This document shows, piece by piece, positions 24,347-52,130 of a stretch of DNA of 64,000 nt. The stretch lies in assembly GCF_044324785.1 (NCBI RefSeq), contig NZ_CP172127.1; one strand, 5' to 3'. A program made the position numbers and the translations under genes. The stretch's first letter is position 1. The number at the start of each line of letters is the position of its first letter. The notes under the pieces are model-generated. The model saw only the letters and a program-made list of their open reading frames with translations. It had not been told where the DNA came from and did not search any database. This DNA is from Escherichia coli (GTDB lineage Bacteria > Pseudomonadota > Gammaproteobacteria > Enterobacterales > Enterobacteriaceae).

Positions 24347-24467
24347 CACGAGAGCCTTTTTTGTCAGCTATCTATACTTTAATGTGACTGCCAAAACAGA
24401 CTCGACGTAGCCTTCGAGCTGCGCACCAACACGGCCTCAGATGGGCCACATCTGGAGAAACACCGCA

Positions 24468-25208
24468 ATGTCAGTTATTGGTCGCATTCACTCCTTTGAA
24501 TCCTGTGGAACCGTAGACGGCCCGGGTATTCGCTTTATCACCTTTTTCCAGGGCTGCCTGATGCGCTGCCTGTATTGTCATAACCGCGACACCTGGGATA
24601 CGCATGGCGGTAAAGAAGTTACCGTTGAAGATTTAATGAAGGAAGTGGTGACCTATCGCCACTTTATGAACGCTTCCGGCGGCGGCGTTACCGCATCCGG
24701 TGGTGAAGCAATCCTGCAAGCCGAGTTCGTTCGCGACTGGTTCCGCGCCTGCAAAAAAGAAGGCATTCATACCTGTCTGGACACTAACGGTTTTGTTCGT
24801 CGTTACGATCCAGTAATTGATGAACTTCTGGAAGTGACCGACCTGGTAATGCTCGATCTCAAACAGATGAACGACGAAATCCACCAGAATCTGGTAGGCG
24901 TTTCCAACCATCGTACACTCGAGTTTGCTAAATATCTGGCGAACAAAAATGTGAAAGTCTGGATACGTTATGTCGTAGTACCTGGCTGGTCTGACGATGA
25001 CGATTCAGCTCATCGCCTCGGTGAATTTACTCGCGATATGGGTAACGTCGAAAAAATCGAGCTCCTCCCCTACCATGAGTTAGGCAAACATAAGTGGGTG
25101 GCGATGGGCGAAGAGTACAAACTCGACGGTGTGAAACCACCGAAAAAAGAAACCATGGAGCGAGTGAAAGGGATTCTTGAGCAATATGGTCATAAAGTGA
25201 TGTTCTAA
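24468..25208 (+). CDS. pflA: Pyruvate formate-lyase activating enzyme (radical SAM)
   Basis: ORF 24441..25208; start at [20 protein letters not shown]; CxxxCxxC motif CLYCHNRD. Confidence 0.95.
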
Positions 25209-25264
25209 AACATCATGTGCAGGCTGAATTCCGACCTGCCACCCCTTCCTTTAGTAGTAAAAAG

Positions 25265-25300
25265 TAAATCAGCGTTGAGAACATGCTCGACGCTGATTTA
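25265..25300. terminator. Bidirectional hairpin between the convergent pflA and bcsC-like genes
   Basis: TAAATCAGCG-N16-CGCTGATTTA inverted repeat. Confidence 0.55.
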
Positions 25301-25342
25301 CTGGATTTAATTTCCGAGTTTTAACCTTCTGATTCTACCTCA

Positions 25343-28300
25343 TTACCAGTCGGCGTAAGGTATCAGCGGCTGCGGCGGTAAATCCATGTCGCCCTGCCAT
25401 CCGGCGGCGGAATACCGCACGTAGAGCAGGAAATGGCTTGGCGCATAATCTTTCGCCTGCTGGATATCAATCGCCGTGCCGACAAACCAGTTGGACGTGA
25501 CGCGACGCTCAAGTAACGCCCGCGCCGTGTAGCCAAAGCCCTGACTGCTGCCGCCGTCGTTGGTCTGACTGGCGGCATCCTCTTTCCAGTCCGTCGGGAT
25601 CAGGTTCATCAGCGGATAACGCGGCATGGTTTTGGTGCGCGAATGCGACCACGAGCCAGACGCACCCAGCTCCCACGACCAGTTTTCCGTCCGCTCCCGC
25701 CACATCACCGGTATGGCAAACGACAGGTATTCCTGCGGGCTGTAGTAACCGCCCTGACCAAGTGAGTAGCCACTCAGGTCTTTGTCGTAATGCCAGATCA
25801 TATTGTTAAGACCAATGGTCACACGGCGATTATTCTGGTTGATGATCTTATAGTAATAGCCCGTCATCCAGCGCACGCGCCAGTTATCTTCGACATTTTT
25901 ACCGGTTAACTGGTCACCGCTAAGCGATGCCCAGACGCCGTTTGCTTCACCTTTATCGTAGCTCAGGCTTAGCCCCACGCCGTCGGCACGCACGCCGCCC
26001 CATTTTTTCCCGGTATTGCTCGGGGAGTCTTTTTGCCCGCCAAAGGCCAGCAAAGAACTGGAGATGGGCCGACGGTGGGCGTTAACGGTGTAACCCAGCG
26101 GCCCGATATCATCGCTGTAACTGATGCCGCCGACCACATCCACCACGTTGAAGCCCATCGGCGTGGTGCCGATATCCCAGCTCCAGACGTCATTTCGCCA
26201 GCCGACCGCCACGCTGGCACCGGAATCCGACTGGCTGCGGTTGCCGCTACAGTCCTGTAATGTACAGGTGCCCCAGTTGTCATCCCATTTGCCATCGGCA
26301 TTAGTGGAGAAACTGCCGACGTTCATATTGACGAAATCACTGCGAAAGAACATCCGCCCGTCAGAGTACGGCGCATCCACCTGCAACATGGTGGTGTGCG
26401 CTTTCAGATCGGAGTAACCACCGGTGCCGCTCGAACCCCAGTAATCGTGCTCGAGGGTGACGTTAAGATCCTGCTGGCGATAGAGGTCCGCTGCATCGCT
26501 GCGCACGCCGCGTTTCAGCCAGTCATCTTTCTCGTCGTTACGGGTCAGCCGGGTAAAGGTGTCGTTATCCTGCGGACGCGTCGTGGTCACACCGGATGCG
26601 ACCATCGCGTCTTTGTAGGTTTCCAGCGCCTGCGTTGGATCGCCCGCCTGCGCTTCAAACTTCGCACCGTCGCGCAGCACCATCGCGCTTTCCATCGACG
26701 GTGGCTGAGATTTTGCCTGCGGGATCAACTTATTAAACGTCTGCTGCGCCGCTGCGGTATCGCCAAGCTGCGCCTGCGCCAGCGCCACGCGCCGCTGAGT
26801 GTTCAGAGAGGCGTTATCAGTGGCGGGCAGTTTCGCCAGCTGGCTACGTGCCGCCGCTTTGTCACCGGCAGCAATATCCACTTCCGTCAGACCAAGAATG
26901 GCATCGGCGTTAGTTGGCTCCCGCGTCAGGACATTCTGATATGCAGCGCGAGCGGCGGTGTAATCACGTCGTTGTTGCGCCCAGTCAGCCAGCGTGAGGT
27001 CAATACGCGAGGAAGGCGGTTGCTGGCGCAGCATCGCTTCCGCTTCTGCCTCTTTGCCGCTTTCTCGCAGGCGATTAGCGGTTTCCAACACCTGATCGCT
27101 TTGCAGTCGATTAACCAGCTCCTGAATATTGCTGCTCCACTGCGCGCGCGGCAGGCTGTTGATATGCGCCAGCGCCGCTCTGTCCTGGTCATGACCAGAG
27201 AGATACAGCCCGTAAGCGTAAACCTGCTCCGGGTCGTTCGGCTTCTGCTGCGCCAGATTGCGCATTAACGTATCGGCCTGGCTGCGTTGTCCGGCCTGCC
27301 AGAGATCCTGTGAAAGTCGGTAAGTAATCCATACACTGCCGGGGTCCAGCGCCAGTCGCTGGCGCTGAAGTGCTGCTGCCTGCGCCCATTTGCCCTGTTT
27401 TTCCAGCGCTTCGGCCTGCTGTGACAAACGGTCATTTTGCAGGCTGCGTTCGATATCATCAATGCTACGCCGCTGACTGGCAGAGAGCGAGGCGATAAAC
27501 GCTTCAGCCTTTTCTGGCGATTGCTGGCGGTATATATTCGCCAGCCCGCGCACGGCGTTAGTGTTGCCGCTGTCCATACGCAAGGTCTGCTGATAATAAC
27601 GTTCGGCGGCGGGATAATCTTTTCGCGCCATCGCCACATCGCCCAGCCCCAGCACTGCATAGCTGTCGGTGTTATCGACATTACGCGCCTGCTGGAACAG
27701 GCGTTCTGCCCGGTCAGGATTATTGGCTTTCAGCGCAGCATCGCCCTGCTGGATCGCCAGCCAGTAGCGGTTTACTTTCAGGAGACTGTTCCATTTGTCG
27801 TTGTTGCTGCTGTGCGGATCCAGGGCGAGGGCTTTTTCCAGATTCGCCACCGCATTGGCGCGATCGCCTTTCTGAGAATACGCCTGGCCCAGCGCTCCAA
27901 ATATGGCACCAGAGTCAGGATTATCAATATTAAGTATTTTCAACTGACGAATCGCTTCGTTGCGACGGGAGGCAATTTGCGTCATTGCCCCCCAGTATTC
28001 CAGCGCCATTTCGATATCTGGCGGTGCACCGTTAAATAGCTTGTCGTAACTGTCGATAGCCTCTTTATGTCGCCCGGAGATAGCTTGTAAGCGTGCCATT
28101 TGCAGTGCCTGACGCCCCTCAGGCGAAGAAAGTCGCATGGCCGTGCGCGATGCTTTATATATTTTTGAATCAGGAGCGAGCAGGGAAAGTCTGGCAAGTT
28201 GTTTTTGCGCGCCTTCAATATCTCCCTTACGCAGCAGATAGCGAAAACGCGCCGCAACGACATCTGGATTATCAGGTTCCGCCAATTCAAGACGATAAAG

Positions 28301-28450
28301 CGACTGTTCGACCAGATCTTCACGATGAATGTCTTCGCCTAACCGAATCTGCGCCATTAACAGCTTGTGTGCAGTTGGTGTGGCTTTCGCCATCGACATT
28401 ACCGCCAAACCAAGGGATATTGTGAGTAAATTTAGGGTGAATTTGTACAT
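25343..28450 (-). CDS. BcsC-like exopolysaccharide export protein: N-terminal TPR repeats plus C-terminal outer-membrane beta-barrel
   Basis: 1035 aa; N-terminal signal peptide; long TPR-like repeat region; C-terminus rich in alternating aromatic/glycine strands and ending in W. Visibly more GC-rich than the genes upstream of it in the cluster. Confidence 0.8.
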   Translation of the reverse strand: MYKFTLNLLTISLGLAVMSMAKATPTAHKLLMAQIRLGEDIHREDLVEQSLYRLELAEPDNPDVVAARFRYLLRKGDIEGAQKQLARLSLLAPDSKIYKASRTAMRLSSPEGRQALQMARLQAISGRHKEAIDSYDKLFNGAPPDIEMALEYWGAMTQIASRRNEAIRQLKILNIDNPDSGAIFGALGQAYSQKGDRANAVANLEKALALDPHSSNNDKWNSLLKVNRYWLAIQQGDAALKANNPDRAERLFQQARNVDNTDSYAVLGLGDVAMARKDYPAAERYYQQTLRMDSGNTNAVRGLANIYRQQSPEKAEAFIASLSASQRRSIDDIERSLQNDRLSQQAEALEKQGKWAQAAALQRQRLALDPGSVWITYRLSQDLWQAGQRSQADTLMRNLAQQKPNDPEQVYAYGLYLSGHDQDRAALAHINSLPRAQWSSNIQELVNRLQSDQVLETANRLRESGKEAEAEAMLRQQPPSSRIDLTLADWAQQRRDYTAARAAYQNVLTREPTNADAILGLTEVDIAAGDKAAARSQLAKLPATDNASLNTQRRVALAQAQLGDTAAAQQTFNKLIPQAKSQPPSMESAMVLRDGAKFEAQAGDPTQALETYKDAMVASGVTTTRPQDNDTFTRLTRNDEKDDWLKRGVRSDAADLYRQQDLNVTLEHDYWGSSGTGGYSDLKAHTTMLQVDAPYSDGRMFFRSDFVNMNVGSFSTNADGKWDDNWGTCTLQDCSGNRSQSDSGASVAVGWRNDVWSWDIGTTPMGFNVVDVVGGISYSDDIGPLGYTVNAHRRPISSSLLAFGGQKDSPSNTGKKWGGVRADGVGLSLSYDKGEANGVWASLSGDQLTGKNVEDNWRVRWMTGYYYKIINQNNRRVTIGLNNMIWHYDKDLSGYSLGQGGYYSPQEYLSFAIPVMWRERTENWSWELGASGSWSHSRTKTMPRYPLMNLIPTDWKEDAASQTNDGGSSQGFGYTARALLERRVTSNWFVGTAIDIQQAKDYAPSHFLLYVRYSAAGWQGDMDLPPQPLIPYADW

Positions 28451-28562
28451 GCCTGCCTCAATCAGGTGTTAACTCACTTTTTATTAAAAACAGAACGGGC
28501 GCAGCTCCCTGCCTGTATAAAGTCAGGACAGAATGGAGCCGCAAAATAGAAATGATGATGAA

Positions 28563-29166
28563 TTACTGTTGATGAGGGTTCAGACGACGGCGACTAATGT
28601 TACGTAACAGACTCCATACTACCCACGCCAATAGCACCACACTGAGAGTTGCCAGCACTGCCAGTAGAATGGGATGTCTGGCTAACACATATTGCACTCG
28701 TTCAATCCAGGGGAGATGCCCAACGTAATAAGTATCTCCAACTCGTAAACTATTGATGCCAGATTCACGAATAACCGCGACTGAACCAAAAATATTGCCG
28801 CGTTTTGTACTATTAATTAACGCATTGTTGAGTAGCGTATCTCCGCGTGATCCCTCGGACATTAAAGCAATTACGCTGCGTTGGGTATGATATGGAGACT
28901 GAAAACCAACTATCGCCGCCATTGGCAATGGAGAATTTATAGTTGTTTGTATTTCAGGTTTTTGATCGTCGTTATCTGTCATAATTTTGGCGTAATCAGA
29001 GTGTCGTATTGGGCTTTTTACCCAACTTGTTGTTGCCTCAATGAGCAGATTAATTTGCTGATTGTCTGCAAATTCTTGCGGAAGTCTTCCTATTAACAGG
29101 ATATCTGAATCCTTGCCCTGGACAGAACCTATATCATCAGTAATTGTCAGATTAATTGCCGGAGAT
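28563..29166 (-). pseudogene. BcsB-like subunit, 3' fragment, separated from its 5' part by IS2
   Basis: Frame is open (no stops, checked codon by codon) from the IS2 junction at 29166 down to the stop at 28563; C-terminal TM anchor HPILLAVLATLSVVLLAWVVW...RRR typical of BcsB. In frame with the 5' fragment once IS2 and one GAGAT copy are removed. Confidence 0.8.
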
Positions 29167-29177
29167 TGGATTTGCCC

Positions 29178-30083
29178 CTATATTTCCAGACACCTGTTAT
29201 CACTTAACCCATTACTGGCCTGCTGCCGCAGATATTCCCGTGGCGAGCGATAACCCAGTGCACTATGCGGATGCCATTCGTTATAATGCTCGAACGCCTC
29301 TGCAAGGTTCTTTGCTGCCGTTAACCCGTCTGGTTTAGGCATGATACTGATGTAGTCACGCTTTATCGTTTTCACGAAGCTCTCTGCTATGCCGTTACTC
29401 TCCGGACTCCGCACCGCCGTGTTCTTCGGTTCAAGCCCCAACATCCGGGCAAACTGCCGTGTTTCATTAGCCCGGTAGCATGAACCATTATCCGTCAGCC
29501 ACTCTACTGGAGACGCCGGAAGCTCGTTGCCGAAGCGGCGTTCCACCGCTCCCAGCATTACGTCCTGTACTGTTTCACTGTCGAAGCCGCCCGTAGTGAC
29601 TGCCCAGTGCAGTGCCTCACGGTCACAGCAGTCCAGCGCGAACGTGACTCGCAGTTTTTCTCCGTTATCACAGCGGAACTCGAACCCGTCAGAGCACCAT
29701 CGTTGATTGCTTTCTTTCACGGCCACTTTGCCAGTATGTGCCCGTTTCGATGGCGGTACAGCGGTTTTTCGCTCAAGCAACAGCGCATTCTGGCGCATGA
29801 TCCGGTAAACACGTTTGGCATTGATCGCAGGCATACCATCAAGTTCGGCCTGTCTGCGAAGCAGCGCCCATACCCGACGATAACCATACGTGGGCAGCTC
29901 TCCGATAACATGGTGTATACGGAGAAGCACATCCGTATCATCTGAGTGACGGCTGCGGCGACCATCTTTCCAGTCATCGGTTCGTCTGAGAATTACGTGC
30001 AACTGCGCACGCGACACCCGGAGACAACGGCTGACTAAGCTTACTCCCCATCCCCGGGCAATAAGGGCGCGTGCGCTATCCAC
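29178..30083 (-). CDS. insD: IS2 transposase OrfB (InsD; DDE integrase domain)
   Basis: 301-aa [33 protein letters not shown]...; overlaps orfA near a T6/A6G slippery run at about 30084-30090. Confidence 0.9.
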
Positions 30084-30406
30084 TTTTTTGCACGCCCGTA
30101 TTCAACGGCTTCTTTAAGGAGTTCATTTTCCATCGTTTTTTTGCCGAGCAGGCGCTGGAGTTCTTTAATCTGCTTCATGGCAGCAGCAAGTTCAGAGGCA
30201 GGAACGACCTGCTCTCCTGCGGCCACAGCAGTAAGACTTCCCTCCTGGTATTGCTTGCGCCAGAGAAATAACTGGCTGGCTGCCACACCGTGTTGCCGGG
30301 CAACAAGGGAGACCGTCATTCCCGGTTCAAAACTCTGCTGAACAATAGCGATCTTTTCCTGTGTAGTACGCCGTCTGCGTTTCTCCGGTCCTAAGACATC
30401 AATCAT
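30041..30406 (-). CDS. insC: IS2 OrfA (InsC; helix-turn-helix)
   Basis: [40 protein letters not shown]... Confidence 0.9.
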
Positions 30407-30497
30407 CTGCTCTCCAATGACTAGTCTAAAAACTAGTATTAAGACTATCACTTATTTAAGTGATATTGGTTGTCTGGAGATTCAGGGGGCCAGTCTA

Positions 30498-32199
30498 GAG
30501 ATCCAGTTTGAGCACCAATCAGTCCAAGGGTATTTAATAATGTTTCAACTTGCGTTGTGCCAGGATTTTCAGGCATAACCACAACCGTTTCTGATAGATC
30601 GGCCATGCGGCTAAATGGAAAGCCTGAGCTGGCAAAAGCGCGTAAATCTGGCATTGCGATAAAGTGATGGTACTTTGAAAAATCGATAGTGGAATCATCT
30701 GCAATAACCGCATGATTTTTTAGCGACCGGGAAATAATACAGCTATCGGCATCAGAGCGCGGCATTGTATTAACGTACTCAAAATTAAATCGCAATTGAT
30801 TAAGCGCCCCTAACGTCAGCGCAGGAATGTTAATTTCATTATTACCATCCAACAATTCTTGCAATAACGGTAAACGTAACAATAACCTATCAGTAGCAGA
30901 TTGCGGACTCAGCCGGAAAGATTCAAGGTACTGGTTATTAAGGCTGACATCCATGCGTGAACCACCTATCGTTGGCGTGGTATAACGATAGTTAATCTTC
31001 ATCTCACCCCCACGATTACGCAATAGAAAGAGATCAGGTGGCAAATTAAATGAAACATTAATTGCCGCAGACTCCAGGGCACTTGCCTGTAACTGCCCTT
31101 CATAATTTTTAAGCTCTGCGAAAGTTACAGGACGATCAGTGCGTATCCAGTTTGGCGCATCATAAGGTTTACGCGGCAGTAACGGCTTCACGTCATTTAC
31201 GACCACGCTATCGCCGCGAAATAATATATTTCCCTGTGCAAGGCCTTTTGCCGCCTGTAATAAATCTTTATCATCGCGGCCCAAAAGTACCAGCAATTTG
31301 ACAAAGGGATTTTGTGGATGACTGATCATTTTAATAACAGGCGCATTCACCAACGGATGCTCGCGCAGAAAGTCTGGGCGTCTATTGTTCGTGGCAAAGA
31401 CTACTGCATTACTTTCCGGTAACTGGTTATAGAAAACCGGAAATCGGTGACCACGCCAGCCAGATTGCGAACCAAACCACGAAGCGACAATAGCTGATAC
31501 CTGCTGCAAACCAGTCCCAGGAGTACCGGCAAAAACCATCGGCAATGTATTAGGGCGGTTATCTCGCGGATCAAAGAACGGTACAGGAAGATATGAAAGA
31601 TCATTTTTCAAATTGAGTCTCTGAACTACCAGTTCAAGTTCACTGGTACGTCCAATATCAAGCCACAAATTGCCGCTGGTCGGGTTTTCGCAGGCGCTCT
31701 GGTAGTGACTAATTAATTCTAGGCGCAAGCGATTAAAATCCGAAAAATACAATGGGTTAAGAGTTATTTCCGCCAGCGTTTTCTTCCCCAGTTGTTCTTT
31801 GGTAATCGGCAATACCTCCATCAACTCGTCATTAAGATAGACCTTAAGCTGTGACTGGACCGGGATCAGCGACGGTGATGGAGTGTATTCAAGTTTTAGT
31901 TTCGCTTCTGACACTATTTCATCGCTACGCATACCAAACTCAATTTGCCCCTGTGGGTTAACTCCATTCAGGACTATGTTTCCTGGCGCTGGTGCGATTT
32001 GTGTAAATGGGAGTTTAAAATAGCGAGATGGCTCTTTCACATAAGCAGAGATATTTTCTTTCGGGATAGCGGGTAATACTCCGACTGAGGAAGGCTTATG
32101 AATTACTGTATCTGTAGCCGATGCTGTATTTGCCTGGTAAAAACATAGTAACCCCAAGCCAATTATTGCAGCACTTAATCTCAAAAATTTTCTTTCCAT
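30498..32199 (-). pseudogene. BcsB-like periplasmic subunit, 5' fragment, truncated by the IS2 insertion
   Basis: ORF 30448..32220 reads into IS2; probable start MERKFLRLSAAIIGLGLLCFYQANTASA (signal peptide); BcsB-like blocks such as EFGMRSDE and LKVYLNDELMEVLP. Confidence 0.8.
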
Positions 32200-32258
32200 T
32201 TTAAAAAATTCAACAACCATAATAAATACAAATAATATATTTAATTAGCAATCAGAAA

Positions 32259-34379
32259 TTAGAACTGACTTTTAGAACTGCCTTTCAGTGTCCGGAGAAT
32301 ATAAAAAACCATATTGCAATAACCTTTCAGAGAGATAAAACATATTTCAATAAAACTCTTTAAAATATTGTCTCGTTTAATTTTATCATTCCACTCTTGC
32401 CATAGTGAATCACGAGAAAACGTTGCTCTGACATAATTAACATTTTGTTCATGACTCATTGGCATAATCTTCAGACCAATTTTATTATTGTAGGCATGAA
32501 CTATTTCTACCGGTATATCACACTTTCCGTTACTATCATCCAGATAAAGAGACAACCGCTGTGTTTTAACAATATTTTTTACGTCGGAGATATTATCAAG
32601 GATAACGCCTAATCCTCCTTCGGAAAAATCAAGAACAGAACAAGGATAGCTCCGTCCATCTTCCAGTTGTATAACGCCCTTGAAAGAAACATCAATACGG
32701 GGAGAAAAACGCACCTGCTTTTGTTCAATAGAAACAGCCAAAGTTGCGCCAATAATAATTGTATTATAAAACAGCCAAATCAAACAAAAAAAATTCAGGA
32801 TGGCGATATGCCCTTGCAAACTATAAACATTAACAATACCTATTATCAGTCCAATTACATTTAAAATGGCAAAAATAAGATAGGGGTAGGAAATTCGCCA
32901 GTCAACAAACTTATTTTTTATCAGCCCTCCTTTGGCCGTAACGTTGAAACGCCCTTTTGCTGGTGCAAGTAAAGCTACAAGAGTTGGTAGCGTAATATAC
33001 CAAGCCAGAACCATTTCATAAATCTCATTCCAGAATGAATGTCTGTATTTACCCTGTACTCTTGAATTAGTTAAAATAATAACAAATAAATAAGGTAAAA
33101 CATAAGACATAATATCTGCAACCGATGCTTCGATCAGGTTGACCGAAAAGAAAATAGGACATAACGGTGCGAACAAGAAAATCAGTCGTGGCACACCTGA
33201 TAAAAAATGCATCATGCTGCTGAGATAGCAAAGGCGCTGTGATAATGTCAGCCCCTTGCCCAATAATGGATTGTCAATACGCAAGATTTGAATCATGCCT
33301 CGAGCCCATCGAATCCGTTGTCCAATATGAGCAGACAATGTTTCTGTGGCTAGCCCGGCAGCCAGAGGATAGCGAAGATATGCAGAGCTATAACCTGCAC
33401 GATGCAAGCGTAACGACGTATGCGCATCTTCAGTTACTGTTTCGACTGCAATGCCTCCAACCTCATCCAGAGCAGATCTACGGATGATTGCACATGAACC
33501 ACAAAAAAATGAAGCATTCCATGTATCCGTACCATTCTGGATTAACCCATAAAAAAGGTGTCCTTCATTTGGCTTTTGCCGAAACTGCCCCAAATTTCGC
33601 TCAAAAGGATCGGGGGAAAAAAAATGATGTGGTGTTTGCAACATCGATAATTTTTTATCTGCAATAAACCAGCCCATCGTTTTCTTTAAAAAAGATACCG
33701 AGGGTATATGATCGCAATCGAAAATAGCAACAAATTCGCCATTAGCTATTTTAAGCGCATTATTTATATTTCCGGCCTTAGCATGTTCATGTGTTTCTCT
33801 TGCGACATAGTAAATTCCTGACTCGTTCGCAAATTTCCTGAACTCATCCCTGGCGCCATCATCAAGGATCCAGATATGTAATTTATCCTTTGGCCAGTCT
33901 AAAGCCAACGCACCATAAACTGTATTCTTCACGACTGTAAAAGGTTCGTTATATGTGGGTATTAATATATCTACGATGGGCCATTCTTCTTTATTCTCTG
34001 GTAAAGGTATACTTTCTCTGTTCAGCGGGAAGCAAACCTGAAAGTAACCAAGTAATAAAACAAACCAAGCATACGTTTCAGCAGTTAATAACGTGACTGA
34101 AAATAAGCAGTCTGGAAATTCATTCAGGATGACTGAAGAAGAGTACCGCCACCATAGATATCGGGATGAGATGAGTATTCCAACACCCATTAATATCAGG
34201 GTAATCATCCTTCCCTTGAACAAATTAAGGAAAATGACAGCGATGCAAATAATAATTGAAAATAATATTTGTTGATAAAATCCAAGTGGCTGCTCAACAA
34301 TTGATAAAAAGACAAAACATAGCAATATAGCAACAACCAAAAGGATTTTGTTTAATATTTCTTTATTTTTTAAGATCAT
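32259..34379 (-). CDS. BcsA-type processive family-2 glycosyltransferase (cellulose-synthase-like) with C-terminal PilZ c-di-GMP receptor domain
   Basis: 706 aa; DDG, DCD, TED and QRIRW catalytic motifs; FFCGS; gating-loop FNVTAK; PilZ RFSPR (RxxxR) and DFSEGG (DxSxxG); multiple TM helices. Very AT-rich DNA. Confidence 0.85.
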   Translation of the reverse strand: MILKNKEILNKILLVVAILLCFVFLSIVEQPLGFYQQILFSIIICIAVIFLNLFKGRMITLILMGVGILISSRYLWWRYSSSVILNEFPDCLFSVTLLTAETYAWFVLLLGYFQVCFPLNRESIPLPENKEEWPIVDILIPTYNEPFTVVKNTVYGALALDWPKDKLHIWILDDGARDEFRKFANESGIYYVARETHEHAKAGNINNALKIANGEFVAIFDCDHIPSVSFLKKTMGWFIADKKLSMLQTPHHFFSPDPFERNLGQFRQKPNEGHLFYGLIQNGTDTWNASFFCGSCAIIRRSALDEVGGIAVETVTEDAHTSLRLHRAGYSSAYLRYPLAAGLATETLSAHIGQRIRWARGMIQILRIDNPLLGKGLTLSQRLCYLSSMMHFLSGVPRLIFLFAPLCPIFFSVNLIEASVADIMSYVLPYLFVIILTNSRVQGKYRHSFWNEIYEMVLAWYITLPTLVALLAPAKGRFNVTAKGGLIKNKFVDWRISYPYLIFAILNVIGLIIGIVNVYSLQGHIAILNFFCLIWLFYNTIIIGATLAVSIEQKQVRFSPRIDVSFKGVIQLEDGRSYPCSVLDFSEGGLGVILDNISDVKNIVKTQRLSLYLDDSNGKCDIPVEIVHAYNNKIGLKIMPMSHEQNVNYVRATFSRDSLWQEWNDKIKRDNILKSFIEICFISLKGYCNMVFYILRTLKGSSKSQF

Positions 34380-34463
34380 TATACTTAGCGATTCATTAAC
34401 AATACAGCTTGAATAGTGTGATTTTTATAAACATTGATGACCAATGCCATGCAAATTTAAATA

Positions 34464-35795
34464 TCAACACCACGTTATCTGTGCTCTGCCATTTTGCTTA
34501 CTTTTGTATAACCGTTCATCTGCCAGCAATTTCAACCGTTCAATGTTATTCATGCACTCATCTGTACTGGCAACTCCTATGCTGCAACTACAATTTAACC
34601 CACCGATTGCGAAATGAACAACTCTGTGCAAAATTCTTGATAGTTTATTTTTATCTTTCTCATAATAAATAATAGCAAACTCATCACCGCCAAACCGGTA
34701 TATTTCCCCTTCACGACGGGGTAACTCATCTTTAATAAGGTTAACAAGTTTGATGAGTACTTCATCACCAAACAGATGGCCAAACTTATCATTAATGGTT
34801 TTAAATTTATCCACATCAAATAGACACAGGTAGCCAAAATTCTTGCTCAGCATCTTGATTTCCTTATCAAAACTCCGACGACCAGAAGCCCGAGTTAATG
34901 CATCACAAGTGCCAAAGTCATATATCTCTCGAATTGCATTAATCTCTTCCGTATTAAAGAATAGATTTTCTCCACATAAATCATATTGATGATTCGATAA
35001 TATAGATTCTTTTTCCAATCTACCCTTATTTATAATATTTCGTAGTAATTTAATATAATAAACATACAGTATAACTGCAGATATTGCCGATGCAAAAACG
35101 AATAGCATACATATATAGAGATATTTACTTTTTTTATAGGCAACAATAAACATCATTTCTGGAAGGTAAGAATACGACAGAGTGATAGCTGACATCTCAA
35201 ATACAGCATCATTTATCAAAAAATCATCACCTGTGATTTTCTTTTCATTATCATTAATATCATAAAATGAGATATAGATATCTTCTCGTTCCCCTGACTG
35301 ATTTCTAATCAAAGATAAATAACGTTCAGGATCTACCACTGATATCAAAATTGTTCGTTTGGCAATGGGATGAGCATAATAAACATAGTACTTATCTTTT
35401 AAACCAATAACACCTCTCTCAAATTCGTTCATTACTCGAATAGAGGAAACTATGTCGCCACAAAAATCATCCCCTTTCGTTGTAACTTTGATACATTTAC
35501 CATCGCTAATAATATAAGGACCGAGATCATACAAATATCCAGGATTTTCATAGCCAGCAAAGCTATTGCGTATTTTTTTTACCAATTCTTCTGGGGCAAT
35601 ATCTAGTTCATAAAATATATCATTAGATACTGAGCGGCGATACTCAGAAACATTAGCTATTGCAAGCCCACTATCTACAATAGATACCTTCACCGAATTA
35701 ATGCGGCCCTTAACATAAATGGTGTATAAATAACAAGTTACTACAGCGACGAACAAAAAACAGATTACTGCCGCCTTTTTCTTATATTTGAACAT
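34464..35795 (-). CDS. Membrane-bound diguanylate cyclase (two TM helices flanking a periplasmic sensor, then GGDEF)
   Basis: 443 aa; intact RFGGDEF active-site motif; no RxxD I-site five residues upstream; about 200-aa periplasmic region containing a Cys pair. Confidence 0.8.
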   Translation of the reverse strand: MFKYKKKAAVICFLFVAVVTCYLYTIYVKGRINSVKVSIVDSGLAIANVSEYRRSVSNDIFYELDIAPEELVKKIRNSFAGYENPGYLYDLGPYIISDGKCIKVTTKGDDFCGDIVSSIRVMNEFERGVIGLKDKYYVYYAHPIAKRTILISVVDPERYLSLIRNQSGEREDIYISFYDINDNEKKITGDDFLINDAVFEMSAITLSYSYLPEMMFIVAYKKSKYLYICMLFVFASAISAVILYVYYIKLLRNIINKGRLEKESILSNHQYDLCGENLFFNTEEINAIREIYDFGTCDALTRASGRRSFDKEIKMLSKNFGYLCLFDVDKFKTINDKFGHLFGDEVLIKLVNLIKDELPRREGEIYRFGGDEFAIIYYEKDKNKLSRILHRVVHFAIGGLNCSCSIGVASTDECMNNIERLKLLADERLYKSKQNGRAQITWC

Positions 35796-35799
35796 TGCT

Positions 35800-38148
35800 T
35801 TATTTTCTTTTTTTCGGTTTGCTGTCTATATGCCATTCTGAAAACGGTAGCGGTTTCTGGTATAAGTATCCCTGAACATGAGAGAATCCTAATTTTTGCA
35901 ATTCTCTGGCCTGACTTTCAGTTTCAACACCTTCAGCTATTACCGGCATATTTTCTTCACGAGCAAGGCTGGATATAAAGTACACAATTTTGTTAGTTTC
36001 GTTGAAAATACCAGAGGTAAACTCTGAATCAATTTTAATACTATCAGGTCTTACTTTATAAAGTTTTTTCAGGTCAGCTAATCCACTACCGAAATCATCA
36101 AGAGAAATCTTGATACCGTTTTCTTTTAAAATGTTTATATTATTGTAAAAGCTATCATTTATATCTTTTACTGCTGACTCGGTGATCTCCAGACAGATTT
36201 GTTCAGCATTTACATCAAATGCATTAATTAAAGTAAGAACACGAGTGTGGAAGTCAATTTCATTTAATTGCCATGGAGAAACATTGATATGCAGGAGAAA
36301 ATCGTTAGCAACCTCATATTCACGGCTAAAGGCACCAAATTCGCTAATAGCCGTTTCGAGAATAAAATCACCCAGTTCTTTAATTAATCCTATTTCTTCA
36401 GCAACAGGTACAAAAATTGATGGCGGTATTGCCCCATTTTCGACGGATAACCAGCGGCATAACGCCTCAGCACCGACAACCCTATTATTATCCATATCAA
36501 CAATCGGTTGATATACTAAATAAAGTTCACTACTCAAAATCGCTTTTTTTATATTTCCTGCCACCCAGACCTTTTGATCAAGTTCATGAACTTTGATATC
36601 ATCATAAAACATAAATTCAGATTCTTTATTTTCCCGCATAGCTGTTAATGCCAGTTTCAACTTCCCTTCATAAATCGAAACATTTTCCCCTGAAAAAGTT
36701 TCACAAATGGCAATCTTATGAATATAAATATTTCTTATGCAAAATATATGTTCAGGGAAGTTTAAAACAGATAATCTTTCGATGAACTCTTCGCAGTGCG
36801 TGTGGCACAGCAACAAGTATGTTTCAGTTGAGAATTTTACGATATCACAATATTTTGAATATTTTTGTGAAATCTTCGATTTTATATCATTAACAATTTC
36901 ATAAAATTTCTGACTTCCATATATCGCCTCAACAAACTCTAATCCATAGATGCAAAGCATACCAACTGCCAAATAGGTTTTATTATTAGTTTCAATAACA
37001 GCCTTATTAATATAGAAACAACTTCCTTGTTCATAGGACACAAGATTAAGTAAACGGTCCATACGCTCCTTGTATTTATCACTGATATTATTAATGATTT
37101 TTTTGAGTTCAACAATTTCGCTACTATCATTTTGCACAATATCAATTGTGTCATTGCGATATACTGAGTTAGCTAATTTTTTCAGATGTTCTATTAGTTT
37201 ACTGGATTCTCGTTTAATTTTTTTTGTTATATTTTCAACGATATACCATAATAAACAGAAACAAACCAAGCCACATAAAAACATCAATGTAAAATATTTA
37301 TTGATGTTTGCATCTTCTGCTTTTTGATAGTAAAAGTAATGGAATCTGACATCAGGAAGCCTGGGGAGTGAGATAATATTGTCTGTATAGTTTCCACTAT
37401 TATTACTTATGTTATAACTTCCCGATGACTCACGGACAATAAGATGTAACATTGATTTTTCATTACCTACCATTATCCTTTTATTTTGTTCCATGAATAG
37501 AATATCAGCATCACTACCTAGTTTATTTAAAAAATTACTGAAATATTTTTCATCAAGATCCAGATGCATTAACTTCAGAGCAAATGAATCTTTTTCTTCT
37601 TCGGATGGCCGTAGTGAAAACGAAAAACATTTTTTTCCGGCAATACCATAACAATTATACCATGGTGACCATTTTGAATAAGTCCCTGCCGGTAATTTAT
37701 TCCAGGGGCGTGATTCCGGGTTAAAGTAGTTATCGCTAATATTACCATCGTCCCCAATAAAAGGTTTGCCGGCTTCTGATTTCCCCAGGAATTTTACCTC
37801 ACCATCCTCAGTTCGAATAAAGCTAAGATAGTTTCCATTATTGAGCATTATCCCTACTAAATTAACAGCGTCTATTTTTTTCATGCGATGAAGGACTGCT
37901 CGCTTTATTTCACCTTCATCATTTAACAGATAAATTGCATCTTTTAATGCATCAGCCTCTTTTTCAACTTTAGAAAAAAAATTATTCAAATTGTTATTGA
38001 TGAGTATAAGGTTAATCCGTGAAGAGTTTTCTGCTATTTTTTTATGGAAGTCAATTGCGGTAATAAATGAAAAGACAATATAGACAGTAACAGCTAATAT
38101 AACCGCAGTGTTAAATCTTGAGTTTAATTTTTCGGTAATGCTATACAT
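35800..38148 (-). CDS. Membrane-bound c-di-GMP phosphodiesterase (periplasmic sensor, degenerate GGDEF-like linker, EAL)
   Basis: 782 aa; EAL-domain residues present (GAEALCRW, QICLEITES, ISLDDFGSG, IKIDSEF, AEGVETE, VQGYLYQKP); no GGDEF motif in the middle domain; two TM helices flank a roughly 250-aa periplasmic region. Confidence 0.8.
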   Translation of the reverse strand: MYSITEKLNSRFNTAVILAVTVYIVFSFITAIDFHKKIAENSSRINLILINNNLNNFFSKVEKEADALKDAIYLLNDEGEIKRAVLHRMKKIDAVNLVGIMLNNGNYLSFIRTEDGEVKFLGKSEAGKPFIGDDGNISDNYFNPESRPWNKLPAGTYSKWSPWYNCYGIAGKKCFSFSLRPSEEEKDSFALKLMHLDLDEKYFSNFLNKLGSDADILFMEQNKRIMVGNEKSMLHLIVRESSGSYNISNNSGNYTDNIISLPRLPDVRFHYFYYQKAEDANINKYFTLMFLCGLVCFCLLWYIVENITKKIKRESSKLIEHLKKLANSVYRNDTIDIVQNDSSEIVELKKIINNISDKYKERMDRLLNLVSYEQGSCFYINKAVIETNNKTYLAVGMLCIYGLEFVEAIYGSQKFYEIVNDIKSKISQKYSKYCDIVKFSTETYLLLCHTHCEEFIERLSVLNFPEHIFCIRNIYIHKIAICETFSGENVSIYEGKLKLALTAMRENKESEFMFYDDIKVHELDQKVWVAGNIKKAILSSELYLVYQPIVDMDNNRVVGAEALCRWLSVENGAIPPSIFVPVAEEIGLIKELGDFILETAISEFGAFSREYEVANDFLLHINVSPWQLNEIDFHTRVLTLINAFDVNAEQICLEITESAVKDINDSFYNNINILKENGIKISLDDFGSGLADLKKLYKVRPDSIKIDSEFTSGIFNETNKIVYFISSLAREENMPVIAEGVETESQARELQKLGFSHVQGYLYQKPLPFSEWHIDSKPKKRK

Positions 38149-39247
38149 ACTGGTGTTCTGACTAAAATGTTATCAATAGCTTTAATATAAGATCGTATAA
38201 AGTTCTGTATATTAGCCGATGTTACCCTCCTCTTTATGACTTTCTTAATTTCATTATCCCCATATAACAAATATGTCATGATGAGAAGATTAATTTTTTC
38301 TTAATTTCCACAAGTGATTATCATGCTTCTTATTTTAACCAGAACAATATTGTTATATGTAACACTCATCTTTGTATCTTTCACCCACGCTACCGCCTTT
38401 CGTTAATCATTCAACGAAATAATTTAGATATGAAAAAATTACCCTGTAACAACACAACTAGCACATCCTGCCGAGTTGTGACATCTACTCTATAATTATC
38501 CAAAAGAGGTATTAGTATCTATTGTCAGTAATCCATTCTGTTTATTTATCTTATTTAAGACATGTGTAATACGACTCTCTTAGCCCAAATATATTAATCA
38601 GTAACTTTAAAGTAAGATTTAGTCAGAAAGTGATCGTGAAAATTTCACTGCCCAGGCTGTAATTTGTCCATCAACCTAACAGATAAATATTTTCAGGAAC
38701 ACACGTTCGATAAAACAATAGATGCAACATTAGAGCACTATTTTATTTTTAAAACAAAAGACTGTGAACTACACCAGGCATGAGAAGATTCTGTCGTGAG
38801 ATGATTTTTTCCAGATTAAAACACTATAAAATATAACTTTTACAGAATATTACGCCAGTAAATCAATATGCCATCTGCATATTCAAACAATAACTGCAAT
38901 CATTCTCAGCAAATTTAACCATAATTAGCAACGTGCAAATTCATTGATGCAGATCAAAAATCCGAGTTTACATTACCAATCTTTGTTGAAAATTTAGCCG
39001 TAAAAATCATGTTATTACTATACGCAAGAGTTTACTCCAGAGCCCAAAATAATAACTTGCAAAATAACCAATAATTAAAACTATCACCATATCTAAAAAT
39101 AAAGGTCTCCGATAACTAAAATTCGTATTATCACGGTAGCGTTGATATTCTTCCATCTCTTAAGAAAAACTTAACTTTTACCCTATCAGGCCTGATCTAA
39201 TTTTAAACTATTTGATATCATAGCCCCGGCGAACCGGGGCATGATGA

Positions 39248-40678
39248 CTATTTTGTATTCGCTTTACGTGCAAGCAGCGGGAATATCAGCCCCAGTCCAA
39301 CGAGGACAAATGGCGTAGTTATGTTCAGTGCCAATTGGAATGTCCACTCTGCAGTGAAGGCTTCCATTTTAGGGAAAATTCCTGTCAGGCAGGCAAAAGC
39401 GGTAAAGGCAAAACACCAAATTCCGACGGTCATTGCCAGCGGCTTATTACGAATAAAGACATATTCCGGCTTATATTTCTGCGCCAGGCGAACAACTGCA
39501 ATAAATGCAACAAATACCCATAAATAACGCAGCGGCATCACTACCGAGTTAAGATTCAACAGCCATTTATAGAGATTGTTCATATCACCAATGCCGAGAG
39601 TCGGCAGCATTATCAGGATCGCCACCAGCACCAGGGTCAGAAAATAGCCATTAACGGGCGTACCAGAAGCGTTGGTACGACATAAACTGGCTGGAATATA
39701 TTTGCTGTCAGCATCGCCTAATAACACTTTAAGCGGCGCATCAATCGAGAATACCAGCGCAGCTACTTGTCCCAGGGTATTCGCAATGGCATAAATCACC
39801 ATTAAAGTATTACCCATGTTGTAATACTCGCCCAGCTTCTGAAAGGCGTAATACTGACCGTTAGTCATTAAGTCATCCGGGATATTACGCGAGTCAAACA
39901 TCATCCCCATCGCCAGTGAGCCCAGAATGGCACAAACCGCAACCATCACCGCCAGACATAACATCCCTTTTGGAAATTCTTTTCCTGGGTTGCGCGTTTG
40001 ATTAACGTAAGGAGAAATCTTCTCTGCTCCGCCAACCGCGAAAACCAGCATTGAAATAGTGGTAATGTAGGTAAAGTCGATATGAGGAATGAACGTTTCC
40101 CAGGTAATGTTTGTGGTCGCAATATGCACTTCAGTAATCGCAGGCGCGGTTACCGCCATCGCCACATACAGGAGCGACATAACAAACATCGCAATCCCTG
40201 CCACAGAACCGACGATTTTCAGCGATTTCATACCGCGTGAAGCAACCCACATAAAGAAGATAAACAGCACCAGCGTTAACCCCTGTAACGCTACGACTGA
40301 ATATTCTTTGATTAGCGAACCGTCGCCTTTCATCGCCCAACCGAGCGCAATCAGTATTGCCTGGGGTTTTTGTGCCAGATAGGGAATATGCACTACCCAG
40401 TAGGTCCACGCGGCGAGGTAAGCCAGTCCGGGTCCCATCGTGTGTTTAATCCAGGTACTGACCCCGCCCTTCCCATCTTTGAAGGTCGAGCCTAACTGAC
40501 CAACAATTAGCGCATAAGGTGTGAAATAGAGCGCAAAGATAAACACCCACGAAAAAACAACCACCAGCCCCTGGTTGGCGTAGTTATTAACAACGTTGCC
40601 AAAACCCCAGACAGTGATAAAAGACATCAGCGCAATGTTGTACCATCGCAGCTGTTTTTCCTGAACATTCCCAGCCAT
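39248..40678 (-). CDS. ycaM: APC-family amino-acid/polyamine transporter YcaM
   Basis: ORF 39248..40870; likely start at the internal MAGNVQEKQLRWYNIALMSF...; polytopic membrane protein. Confidence 0.85.
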   Translation of the reverse strand: MAGNVQEKQLRWYNIALMSFITVWGFGNVVNNYANQGLVVVFSWVFIFALYFTPYALIVGQLGSTFKDGKGGVSTWIKHTMGPGLAYLAAWTYWVVHIPYLAQKPQAILIALGWAMKGDGSLIKEYSVVALQGLTLVLFIFFMWVASRGMKSLKIVGSVAGIAMFVMSLLYVAMAVTAPAITEVHIATTNITWETFIPHIDFTYITTISMLVFAVGGAEKISPYVNQTRNPGKEFPKGMLCLAVMVAVCAILGSLAMGMMFDSRNIPDDLMTNGQYYAFQKLGEYYNMGNTLMVIYAIANTLGQVAALVFSIDAPLKVLLGDADSKYIPASLCRTNASGTPVNGYFLTLVLVAILIMLPTLGIGDMNNLYKWLLNLNSVVMPLRYLWVFVAFIAVVRLAQKYKPEYVFIRNKPLAMTVGIWCFAFTAFACLTGIFPKMEAFTAEWTFQLALNITTPFVLVGLGLIFPLLARKANTK

Positions 40679-50666: not shown

Positions 50667-51421
<755 letters not shown>

Positions 51422-51525
51422 ATCAGCATACTTGTCCTTAGCCTTCTGCAGTGACAGCTGGTAGTACAGCGTGCTTCTGGCCAGCCCTGCAGCCTTTAAC
51501 AGGTCAGACTGGCAGTGTCCGCACC

Positions 51526-52047
51526 TCAGGCTCCGGATGACTTTCGTTTTTTCTCCAGCTCCTGGCGCTTTTTTTCCAGGAGATGCTCCTGCATGGCTTT
51601 CAGATATGCATTTTCTGCGCGAAGATAACGCAGCTCATTCTTCATCTCTTCCGGCGTCATGTTTGCCTCGTTTTCATGGGTATCATCAGAACGGGTCATG
51701 CTTTTCTCCTTCCTGCGCCTGATAAAGGCCTCATTACCAGATTTGCGGTAGCCTTTTATCCAGTTTTTAACCGTGTTGTGGCTGGGAATGTTAAACCGGG
51801 CAGCTACCCGGGGTAGAGACTCAGAATGCCCGAGAGCATAAAGAACCACGCAAAGTTTATCTTCAGGAGAATAGCTACGCTTGTGTCTGCAATCCAGTGC
51901 CCGAGGACCGTGAAGAAGAAAAAGATTAATCCAGTGTGAGAGGCTGGTGTGAGAAAGTTGAAAGAGTTTTGCCGTAGAAATGATGCCTGCATGACCAGCC
52001 AGGTAATGATTTACAGCGGCAAGTTTTACTTCAAATGAATGTTTCAT
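51526..52047 (-). CDS. insJ: IS150 OrfA (InsJ; helix-turn-helix)
   Basis: MKHSFEVKLAAVNHYLAGHAGIISTAKLFQLSHTSLSHWINLF... Confidence 0.85.
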   Translation of the reverse strand: MKHSFEVKLAAVNHYLAGHAGIISTAKLFQLSHTSLSHWINLFLLHGPRALDCRHKRSYSPEDKLCVVLYALGHSESLPRVAARFNIPSHNTVKNWIKGYRKSGNEAFIRRRKEKSMTRSDDTHENEANMTPEEMKNELRYLRAENAYLKAMQEHLLEKKRQELEKKRKSSGA

Positions 52048-52130
52048 AAACTGCACCTTCAGATGTCAGATTATGTCCAACATTTGGGGTGCAGTTCATA
52101 CCGCGCCTTATCCGGCCTACGATGCATTAA

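Follow-up and report, generated by a model that had tools for sequence, protein, structure and literature searches.

Between pflA (24441–25208, plus strand) and ycaM (39248–40678, minus strand), a 64,000-nucleotide stretch of Escherichia coli contig NZ_CP172127.1 (hereafter the window, in which all positions are counted) holds five co-directional minus-strand genes. These very probably constitute a type-3 (BcsA3) accessory cellulose synthase locus, in which the synthase is gated by cyclic di-GMP (c-di-GMP) via a PilZ domain and is linked to a sensor cyclase and a sensor phosphodiesterase, and which has been inactivated in this strain by the insertion sequence IS2. The class itself is already known from a 2025 preprint (Hosseinpourlamardi ... 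Romling, bioRxiv 10.1101/2025.05.09.653004, May 2025), and the same locus, 99.9% identical and intact, is annotated in RefSeq for E. coli N3.

The block 25209–39248 stands in place of the ycaK–ycaN segment of K-12, in which the pflA–ycaM site is occupied by ycaN and ycaK. Collinearity with K-12 (98%) breaks exactly at the stop codon of pflA (25208) and restarts at that of ycaM (39249), and BLASTN detected no remnant of ycaN or ycaK at the locus. An earlier note on this DNA, made from the letters alone, had proposed both the five-gene arrangement and the replacement of ycaN and ycaK; the gene coordinates and the K-12 content bear out both proposals, and the alignment to K-12 places the two breakpoints to the nucleotide. 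The features of the locus are as follows.

24441–25208, plus strand: pflA, the left flanking core gene
25209–25342: spacer of 134 bp, part of the inserted block and absent from K-12
25343–28450, minus strand: bcsC, 1035 aa, with tetratricopeptide repeats (TPRs) and the BCSC_C barrel
25343–27913, minus strand: core-type 3′ part of bcsC, 2.56 kb, BcsC residues ~180–1035, with TPRs and the BCSC_C β-barrel
27914–28450, minus strand: diverged 5′ part of bcsC, 537 nt, with the signal peptide and the first TPRs
28563–29166, minus strand: 3′ fragment of bcsB, codons ~567–766, including the C-terminal membrane anchor and separated by IS2
29167–30497, minus strand: IS2, 1331 bp, inside bcsB
30498–32199, minus strand: 5′ fragment of bcsB, codons 1 to ~566, with a frame that continues into IS2
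32259–34379, minus strand: bcsA (BcsA3 type), 706 aa, GT2 and C-terminal PilZ
34464–35795, minus strand: predicted diguanylate cyclase, 443 aa, GAPES2 periplasmic sensor and GGDEF
35800–38148, minus strand: predicted c-di-GMP phosphodiesterase, 782 aa, CHASE9 sensor and EAL
38149–39247: upstream region, 1.1 kb, 31.7% GC
39248–40678, minus strand: ycaM, the right flanking core gene

Domains and Motifs of the Synthase

All five proteins match the families to which they had been assigned by eye (EAL, GGDEF, GT2/PilZ, BcsB, and BcsC/TPR) in Pfam and NCBIfam, with BcsB matched via the intact copy of strain N3, and the motifs previously quoted are present and align with those of characterised E. coli proteins. 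BcsA has Pfam matches to GT2, Cellulose_synt, and PilZ (PF07238 at residues 555–651, E = 6e-11), and exceeds two NCBIfam equivalog cut-offs (NF008558, 1014 bits vs. 992; TIGR03030, 843 vs. 699). Its catalytic motifs LDDG, FDCDH, VTEDAHT (TED), QRIRW, and FFCGSCA (FFCGS) align with those of core BcsA, and the FNVTAK motif is readable in the translation and the alignment. In the PilZ domain, RFSPR and DFSEGG line up with the RRSHR and DFSDGG motifs of the core protein. The N-terminal extension of ~150 aa that core BcsA possesses is absent.

BcsA is 53% identical to core BcsA (42% when counted over the whole of BcsA1, 365/872 residues), 72% identical to the BcsA2 representative encoded by plasmid S56 pA, and 90% identical to an Escherichia marmotae cluster. 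At the 90% level, it clusters together with further sequences from E. coli and Escherichia ruysiae, and the exact protein is present on 214 contigs in public data. Judging from its motifs, BcsA3 is predicted to produce β-1,4-glucan from UDP-glucose in a c-di-GMP-activated manner. A polymer other than cellulose, such as a mixed-linkage β-glucan or a modified glucan, is an improbable alternative. It would be compatible with the mere 53% identity to the characterised cellulose synthase and with the warning that certain proteins annotated as cellulose synthases may in fact make mixed-linkage glucan (Hosseinpourlamardi et al., 2025); however, both curated cellulose-synthase cut-offs are exceeded, every motif aligned with core BcsA is kept, and the partners BcsB and BcsC are specific to cellulose systems.

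The Linked Cyclase and Phosphodiesterase

The phosphodiesterase has Pfam matches to CHASE9 and EAL (PF00563, E = 2e-64) and is paralogous to PdeI/YliE over its full length (39% identity, 782/782 aa). The catalytic signatures GAEALCRW, HINVS, EITE, DDFGSG, KID, EGVE, and QGY align with those of PdeI, and the protein, which keeps the EAL signature residues, is a predicted c-di-GMP phosphodiesterase. Its stop codon lies 4 nt ahead of the start codon of the cyclase. The cyclase matches GAPES2 and GGDEF (PF00990, E = 2e-24) and is likewise paralogous from end to end to DgcI/YliF (42% identity, 443/442 aa). The RFGGDEF motif is intact, as it is in all alleles and in DgcI, and a diguanylate cyclase activity is predicted from this active-site motif; no RxxD inhibitory site was read in its sequence. 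An in-frame 9-nt deletion (~35750–35765, codons 13–15) at a short TTTTTTGT direct repeat removes the residues FLY from the first membrane helix. Among the alleles compared, only that of the window has this deletion; it is absent from those of N3, 06-00048, MS 21-1, E. marmotae, and Escherichia fergusonii.

The two proteins resemble those encoded by the K-12 pdeI–dgcI (yliE–yliF) pair in domain architecture, lengths, gene order, and tight spacing. They differ from them in being highly diverged, in GC content (33–34% vs. 42–44%), and in being linked to a synthase operon rather than to gsi/rimO. It is possible, though well short of probable, that they serve the general c-di-GMP pool as extra copies of PdeI and DgcI carried along with the synthase genes, instead of acting as a dedicated local switch for BcsA3, and that they are the only functional part of the locus in this strain. 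The full-length paralogy to adjacent K-12 genes in the same order speaks for this possibility, as does the finding that both open reading frames (ORFs) are still open here despite the broken bcsB. On the other hand, pde–dgc–bcsA–bcsB are kept together in types 3 and 2, including on the chromosome of E. fergusonii, the genes are tightly packed on one strand, and all are under similar purifying selection (see below), which favours a functional unit.

In the intact form, as found in N3, the GAPES2 membrane cyclase would make c-di-GMP and the CHASE9 phosphodiesterase would remove it. Binding of c-di-GMP to the PilZ domain of BcsA3 would release auto-inhibition, allowing BcsA3 and BcsB3 to polymerise UDP-glucose into β-1,4-glucan that would exit via BcsC. 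The polymer would probably be unmodified, because bcsEFG are absent from the locus.

Disruption of bcsB by IS2

A break in bcsB had been noticed earlier, with its cause unnamed; the cause is IS2. The element (29167–30497, 1331 bp) is flanked by a 5-bp target duplication, GAGAT (29162–29166 and 30498–30502), and encodes the repressor TnpA (30041–30451) and the TnpB transposase (29178–30083). It splits bcsB after codon ~566 of 766 and leaves no full-length frame that includes the C-terminal membrane helix. IS2 is absent from strain N3, in which bcsB encodes an intact protein of 766 aa that matches PF03170 over its full length (E = 7e-210), scores 1168 against the NF008325 cut-off of 922, and is 65% identical to core BcsB. 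The insertion is recent. The C-terminal anchor of BcsB is reportedly required for BcsA activity, and the synthase is predicted to be inactive in this strain, because the IS2 truncation removes this anchor. The insertion probably lowers expression of bcsC as well. The earlier description of the locus as a module that takes in a signal and puts out a polymer therefore holds for its gene content and not for this copy, in which IS2 splits bcsB and the module is not expected to work.

Other carriers also have interrupted bcsB genes. In SCU-172, the accessory bcsB, an allele of the MS 21-1 type, carries an independent IS1 insertion that splits it at a position unlike that of IS2 (record L018, 5620–6317). 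In two further complete genomes, OZ547117 and MSB1_4I, bcsB gives a two-piece match together with an IS1 annotation and is apparently disrupted. There are hints, anecdotal in a set of only nine complete genomes, that an active second synthase may be costly in E. coli.

Relation to the Core bcs Operon

The core type II system (bcsRQABZC and bcsEFG) and the accessory locus share a c-di-GMP-gated BcsA–BcsB pair and a BcsC exporter with TPRs and a β-barrel. In the classification of Romling and Galperin (2015), a type II locus contains bcsE, bcsF, and bcsG (and bcsQ, bcsR, and bcsZ) alongside bcsABC. None of bcsQ, bcsR, bcsZ, bcsE, bcsF, and bcsG is present between pflA and ycaM, where the gene content is not that of a type II locus. 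What the accessory locus lacks relative to the core system is machinery for phosphoethanolamine modification, an endoglucanase, and polar-localisation/assembly factors. Its BcsC is shorter by 122 aa of TPRs, it occupies another chromosomal site, and it has its own cyclase and phosphodiesterase. The term "self-contained," which had been applied to it, is too strong: bcsC is mostly core-type, and bcsZ, bcsQ, and bcsEFG are missing.

Each of the five genes is a diverged copy of a core gene of enterobacteria, and identity to the core homologues climbs along the operon, from 39% for the phosphodiesterase to 42% for the cyclase, 53% for BcsA, and 65% for BcsB; in BcsC it is ~70% over the N-terminal ~180 aa and 97% over the other ~855 aa. 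The possibility that the locus is merely the ordinary core bcs operon of the strain, relocated or mis-recognised, is negligible. The near-identity of the 3′ 2.56 kb of bcsC to core bcsC (95–97%) and the NCBIfam names BcsA, BcsB, and BcsC would agree with it, but it is already refuted by the low identities of BcsA and BcsB and conflicts with the absence of bcsQ, bcsR, bcsZ, and bcsEFG. It is refuted equally by N3, which carries both loci: a separate and complete core bcsRQABZC/bcsEFG operon lies at the usual dctA–hmsP/yhjV site, 2.8 Mb from the accessory locus. The earlier view that this is not the usual bcs operon is thus upheld.

Relation to the Published Accessory Classes

In the preprint, the accessory clusters of E. 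coli are divided into BcsA2, BcsA3, and BcsA4 types (Hosseinpourlamardi et al., 2025). The N-terminal ~150 aa are absent from BcsA2 and BcsA3, in which every catalytic and PilZ motif is retained. Both are encoded in bcsABC clusters, of which that of BcsA3 is chromosomal; BcsA3 has ~41% global identity to BcsA1 and is distinct from BcsA2. Both types of cluster are flanked by genes for YliF-like GAPES2–GGDEF and YliE-like CHASE9–EAL proteins and are restricted to Escherichia, with BcsA3 occurring in E. coli and E. marmotae (Hosseinpourlamardi et al., 2025). The locus in the window agrees with published bcs3 in its BcsA of ~705 aa without the N-terminus, its chromosomal bcsABC genes, the adjacent YliF-like and YliE-like genes, and its restriction to Escherichia. 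It differs in three respects. The parts of the preprint text consulted do not mention the pflA–ycaM site or the replacement of ycaK–ycaN; BcsC is described there as clustering concordantly with BcsA, which is not so here, where BcsC is chimeric; and this copy has IS2 in bcsB.

Several points weigh against the reading of the locus as a type-3 cellulose synthase under local c-di-GMP control that IS2 has inactivated. The fit to the bcs3 (BcsA3) class, whose representative is HDP8224287.1, is a fit to the description given in the preprint. Cellulose is the product of the type-3 cluster only as judged from protein sequence, and the experiments that support cellulose synthesis by an accessory cluster concern the type-4 plasmid cluster only (Hosseinpourlamardi et al., 2025). 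Local action of the linked cyclase and phosphodiesterase on BcsA3 is putative. The K-12 counterpart DgcI, too, is only putatively a cyclase. Loss of function through IS2 is deduced from background on BcsB, and, given the IS1 breaks of bcsB elsewhere, the locus may often be inactive in E. coli.

Type-2 (BcsA2) clusters share the order pde–dgc–bcsA–bcsB, a similarly low GC gradient, and proteins that are 60–74% identical to those of type 3 (72–74% for BcsA). Their carriers are E. coli plasmids of the p0111/IncF type and the chromosome of E. fergusonii. In S56 plasmid A (record L008, 1–8522), genes for a group II intron reverse transcriptase and an IS200/IS605 transposase lie between bcsB and bcsC, the GGDEF and EAL genes of the cluster are in fragments, and a 126-nt bcsZ remnant precedes a full-length core-type bcsC; the bcsC and bcsZ-remnant sequence is 97.3% identical to K-12. 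In E. fergusonii GCA_020168615.1 (record L017, 10001–18080), a chromosomal pde–dgc–bcsA–bcsB cluster without bcsC lies between a TetR-family gene and yedF/yedE. Its BcsA and BcsB are 93–95% identical to plasmid BcsA2 and BcsB2, and its phosphodiesterase belongs to a cluster of 380 member sequences. The E. fergusonii cluster may be the chromosomal source of the plasmid type-2 clusters.

The Chimeric bcsC

BcsC matches BCSC_C at residues 680–1014 (E = 1e-119) and has several TPR matches, and its NF008520 score is 1900 against a cut-off of 858. The gene consists of two parts that meet at a junction. The 5′ 537 nt (48.2% GC) have 69–70% DNA identity to core bcsC, whereas the 3′ 2.56 kb (58.5% GC) have 95–97% identity to the core bcsC of almost every E. 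coli genome; at the protein level, the region from residue ~165–180 to residue 1035 is 97% identical to residues 287–1157 of K-12 BcsC. At the junction, 366 nt (122 aa) of core bcsC have been deleted. The junction lies at the same nucleotide in every allele examined, which indicates that the chimera arose once.

Recent copying of the 3′ part from the resident core gene in the N3/window lineage was considered and rejected: the 3′ part is 96.8% identical at the DNA level to the core bcsC of N3 itself, rather than >99%, and two E. coli core bcsC alleles are 97.0% identical to each other. In 06-00048, the 3′ part is a mosaic with 89–100% identity. E69 bcsC differs more from that of the window in the 3′ part (93.5% identity) than in the 5′ part (99.6%), and the MS 21-1 3′ part is 88% identical to everything else. 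On these alignments, the history of the 3′ part differs from that of the 5′ part, and the host core copy appears to have re-overwritten the type-3 3′ part in different host lineages. All four E. marmotae contigs examined end ~200 nt beyond the junction, for which the simplest explanation would be a repeat shared with the core bcsC of the same genome.

The idea that the accessory BcsB requires the diverged N-terminus of BcsC as an adaptor is weakened, because the type-2 plasmid bcsC is wholly core-type and the E. fergusonii cluster has no bcsC. A tentative proposal, which we regard as possible rather than probable, is that the ancestral accessory unit was a four-gene pde–dgc–bcsA–bcsB module that depends on, and repeatedly captures, host core bcsC. 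It builds on three configurations, namely the type-2 cluster without bcsC in E. fergusonii, the core-derived bcsC with a bcsZ stump on the plasmid, and the type-3 chimera.

Distribution, Alleles, and Movement

The locus is present in 9 of 5,426 complete E. coli genomes. It occupies the pflA–ycaM site in every context examined (N3, 06-00048, MS 21-1, and SCU-172), and the divergent lineage "E. coli" E69 (CP089930.1, a GTDB species representative) has the same site and architecture. E69 is also the only carrier found in a scan of 100,044 species-representative genomes. The E. marmotae contigs, which end inside bcsC, have the same ycaD-side context; most of ycaM (equivalent to 39214–40596 of the window) is missing next to the locus in that species (record L010, 4883–6441).

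At least four allele lineages can be distinguished. The synonymous divergence (dS) between the N3/window allele and the 06-00048/E69 allele is 0.11–0.20, and the pairwise values among the N3/window, MS 21-1, and E. marmotae alleles are 0.55–0.86. For the flanking ycaD, E. coli genomes differ from one another by a dS of 0.05–0.06 and from E. marmotae by ~0.7; the distance between alleles from different E. coli strains is therefore that between Escherichia species. The ratio of nonsynonymous to synonymous divergence (dN/dS) is 0.05–0.25 on all five genes, indicating purifying selection.

This selection, maintained across dS values of 0.55–0.86, argues against a decaying relic without function in any host, as do the ORFs that are intact in N3, 06-00048, MS 21-1, and E69. 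Such a relic is very improbable, even though bcsB is interrupted by IS2 in the window and by IS1 in SCU-172, and IS1 has apparently broken it in another two of the nine complete genomes. The E. marmotae phosphodiesterase gene, for which either a shortened frame (709 or 694 aa) or two pieces (462 + 231 aa; record L013) are called, would also agree with it and suggests decay of this gene in some strains of that species.

The flanks carry traces of recombination. The last ~400 nt of pflA are 88–89% identical to K-12, compared with 97–100% further upstream, and the 200 nt of ycaM next to the junction are 85.5% identical, compared with 95–100% further on; overall, divergence from K-12 amounts to 11–15% at the ends next to the locus (200–400 nt in pflA, 200 nt in ycaM) and to 0–3% further away. 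The 06-00048 allele is 99–100% identical to that of E69, the ycaD flank of which is at a species-level distance. The flanks of E69 are mosaic: the pflA side is 97–99% identical to the window and the ycaM/ycaD/dmsC side 86–93%, with species-level dS values of 0.6 for ycaD and 0.8 for dmsC. A recombination boundary therefore passes through or beside the locus in E69.

GC content rises along the operon, from 31.7% in the upstream spacer to 33.0% in the phosphodiesterase gene, 33.9% in the cyclase gene, 37.5% in bcsA, and ~43% in bcsB. The AT-richness of the upstream part had been taken to indicate horizontal acquisition. The gradient is real, but searches of 5.8 billion proteins with BcsA and the phosphodiesterase found close relatives in Escherichia only and no non-Escherichia donor; the next-best BcsA matches are core Enterobacterales BcsA proteins (51–56%). 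A classical genomic island, acquired from an AT-rich donor outside Escherichia as one self-contained unit on a mobile element, is accordingly unlikely. The low GC content of pde–dgc–bcsA (33–37%) and of the 1.1-kb spacer, the rarity of the locus in E. coli, and the plasmid location of related type-2 clusters are what such an island would lead one to expect. However, no tRNA gene (by scan), border repeat, or integrase ORF is found at the locus, where the sole transposase genes are those of the recent IS2 within bcsB. Moreover, the site is shared by E. coli and E69, with the same ycaD-side context in E. marmotae, and proteins of E. ruysiae group with the same BcsA sequences (a result of protein clustering rather than of genomic context). 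The divergence of the alleles matches that of species, the flanks diverge in the manner of recombination, and bcsC is largely core Escherichia sequence.

These sequence comparisons fit an old locus of the genus Escherichia that occasionally enters E. coli by homologous recombination in pflA and ycaM. Homologous recombination is preferred to a mobile island because integrase, tRNA, and border repeats are absent, the flank ends are diverged, the site is shared, and the close relatives are confined to Escherichia.

Candidate Transcription Signals and Other Features of the Window

A hairpin with a 17-bp stem at 25263–25302, in the spacer between the convergent pflA and bcsC, looks like a terminator common to both genes. 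It is the only one that stands out among the terminator-like sites, which number 15 compared with 12.5 in shuffled sequence. Promoter-like sites likewise show no excess (38 vs. 34 in shuffled sequence); the top-scoring site is at 38768–38740 on the minus strand, and such sites occur at chance frequency. The upstream region (38149–39247), which is the least conserved stretch between alleles (67–77%), has no ORF of >51 aa in a small-ORF scan. It presumably carries the promoter and regulatory region, and it may be silenced. An Rfam search of 25000–39600 at a permissive threshold returned two sub-threshold chance matches only, and no riboswitch or known small RNA was found by it in the 1.1-kb leader.

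Elsewhere in the window, a 1.43-kb insertion relative to K-12 lies between lolA and ftsK (50667–52098). Its two ORFs, of 176 aa and 240 aa, overlap on the minus strand and resemble orfA and orfB of the IS3 family; the insertion is a second insertion sequence in the window. Several overlapping self-similar BLAST matches inside ftsK (53673–53946) reflect tandem repeats, rich in proline and glutamine, that make up the FtsK linker and align differently from those of K-12.

Significance of the Accessory Locus

For the bcs3 class, the analysis adds the exact chromosomal site with its breakpoints, a polymorphism that appears to be old at the genus level and to have spread by recombination between species-level lineages, and recurrent inactivation of bcsB by insertion sequences. 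The chimeric, core-type bcsC contradicts simple co-inheritance of bcsA, bcsB, and bcsC. If the capture of host bcsC suggested above is true, the outer-membrane exporter would be an interchangeable part serving two synthases, an idea that the configurations in S56 pA and E. fergusonii support, and the independent knock-outs of bcsB (by IS2 here and by IS1 in SCU-172) would reflect the cost of running two synthases with one type of exporter. A few E. coli lineages carry a second cellulose synthase that is potentially independently regulated and has its own signal-sensing c-di-GMP enzymes, which bears on strain-to-strain differences in the biofilm matrix.

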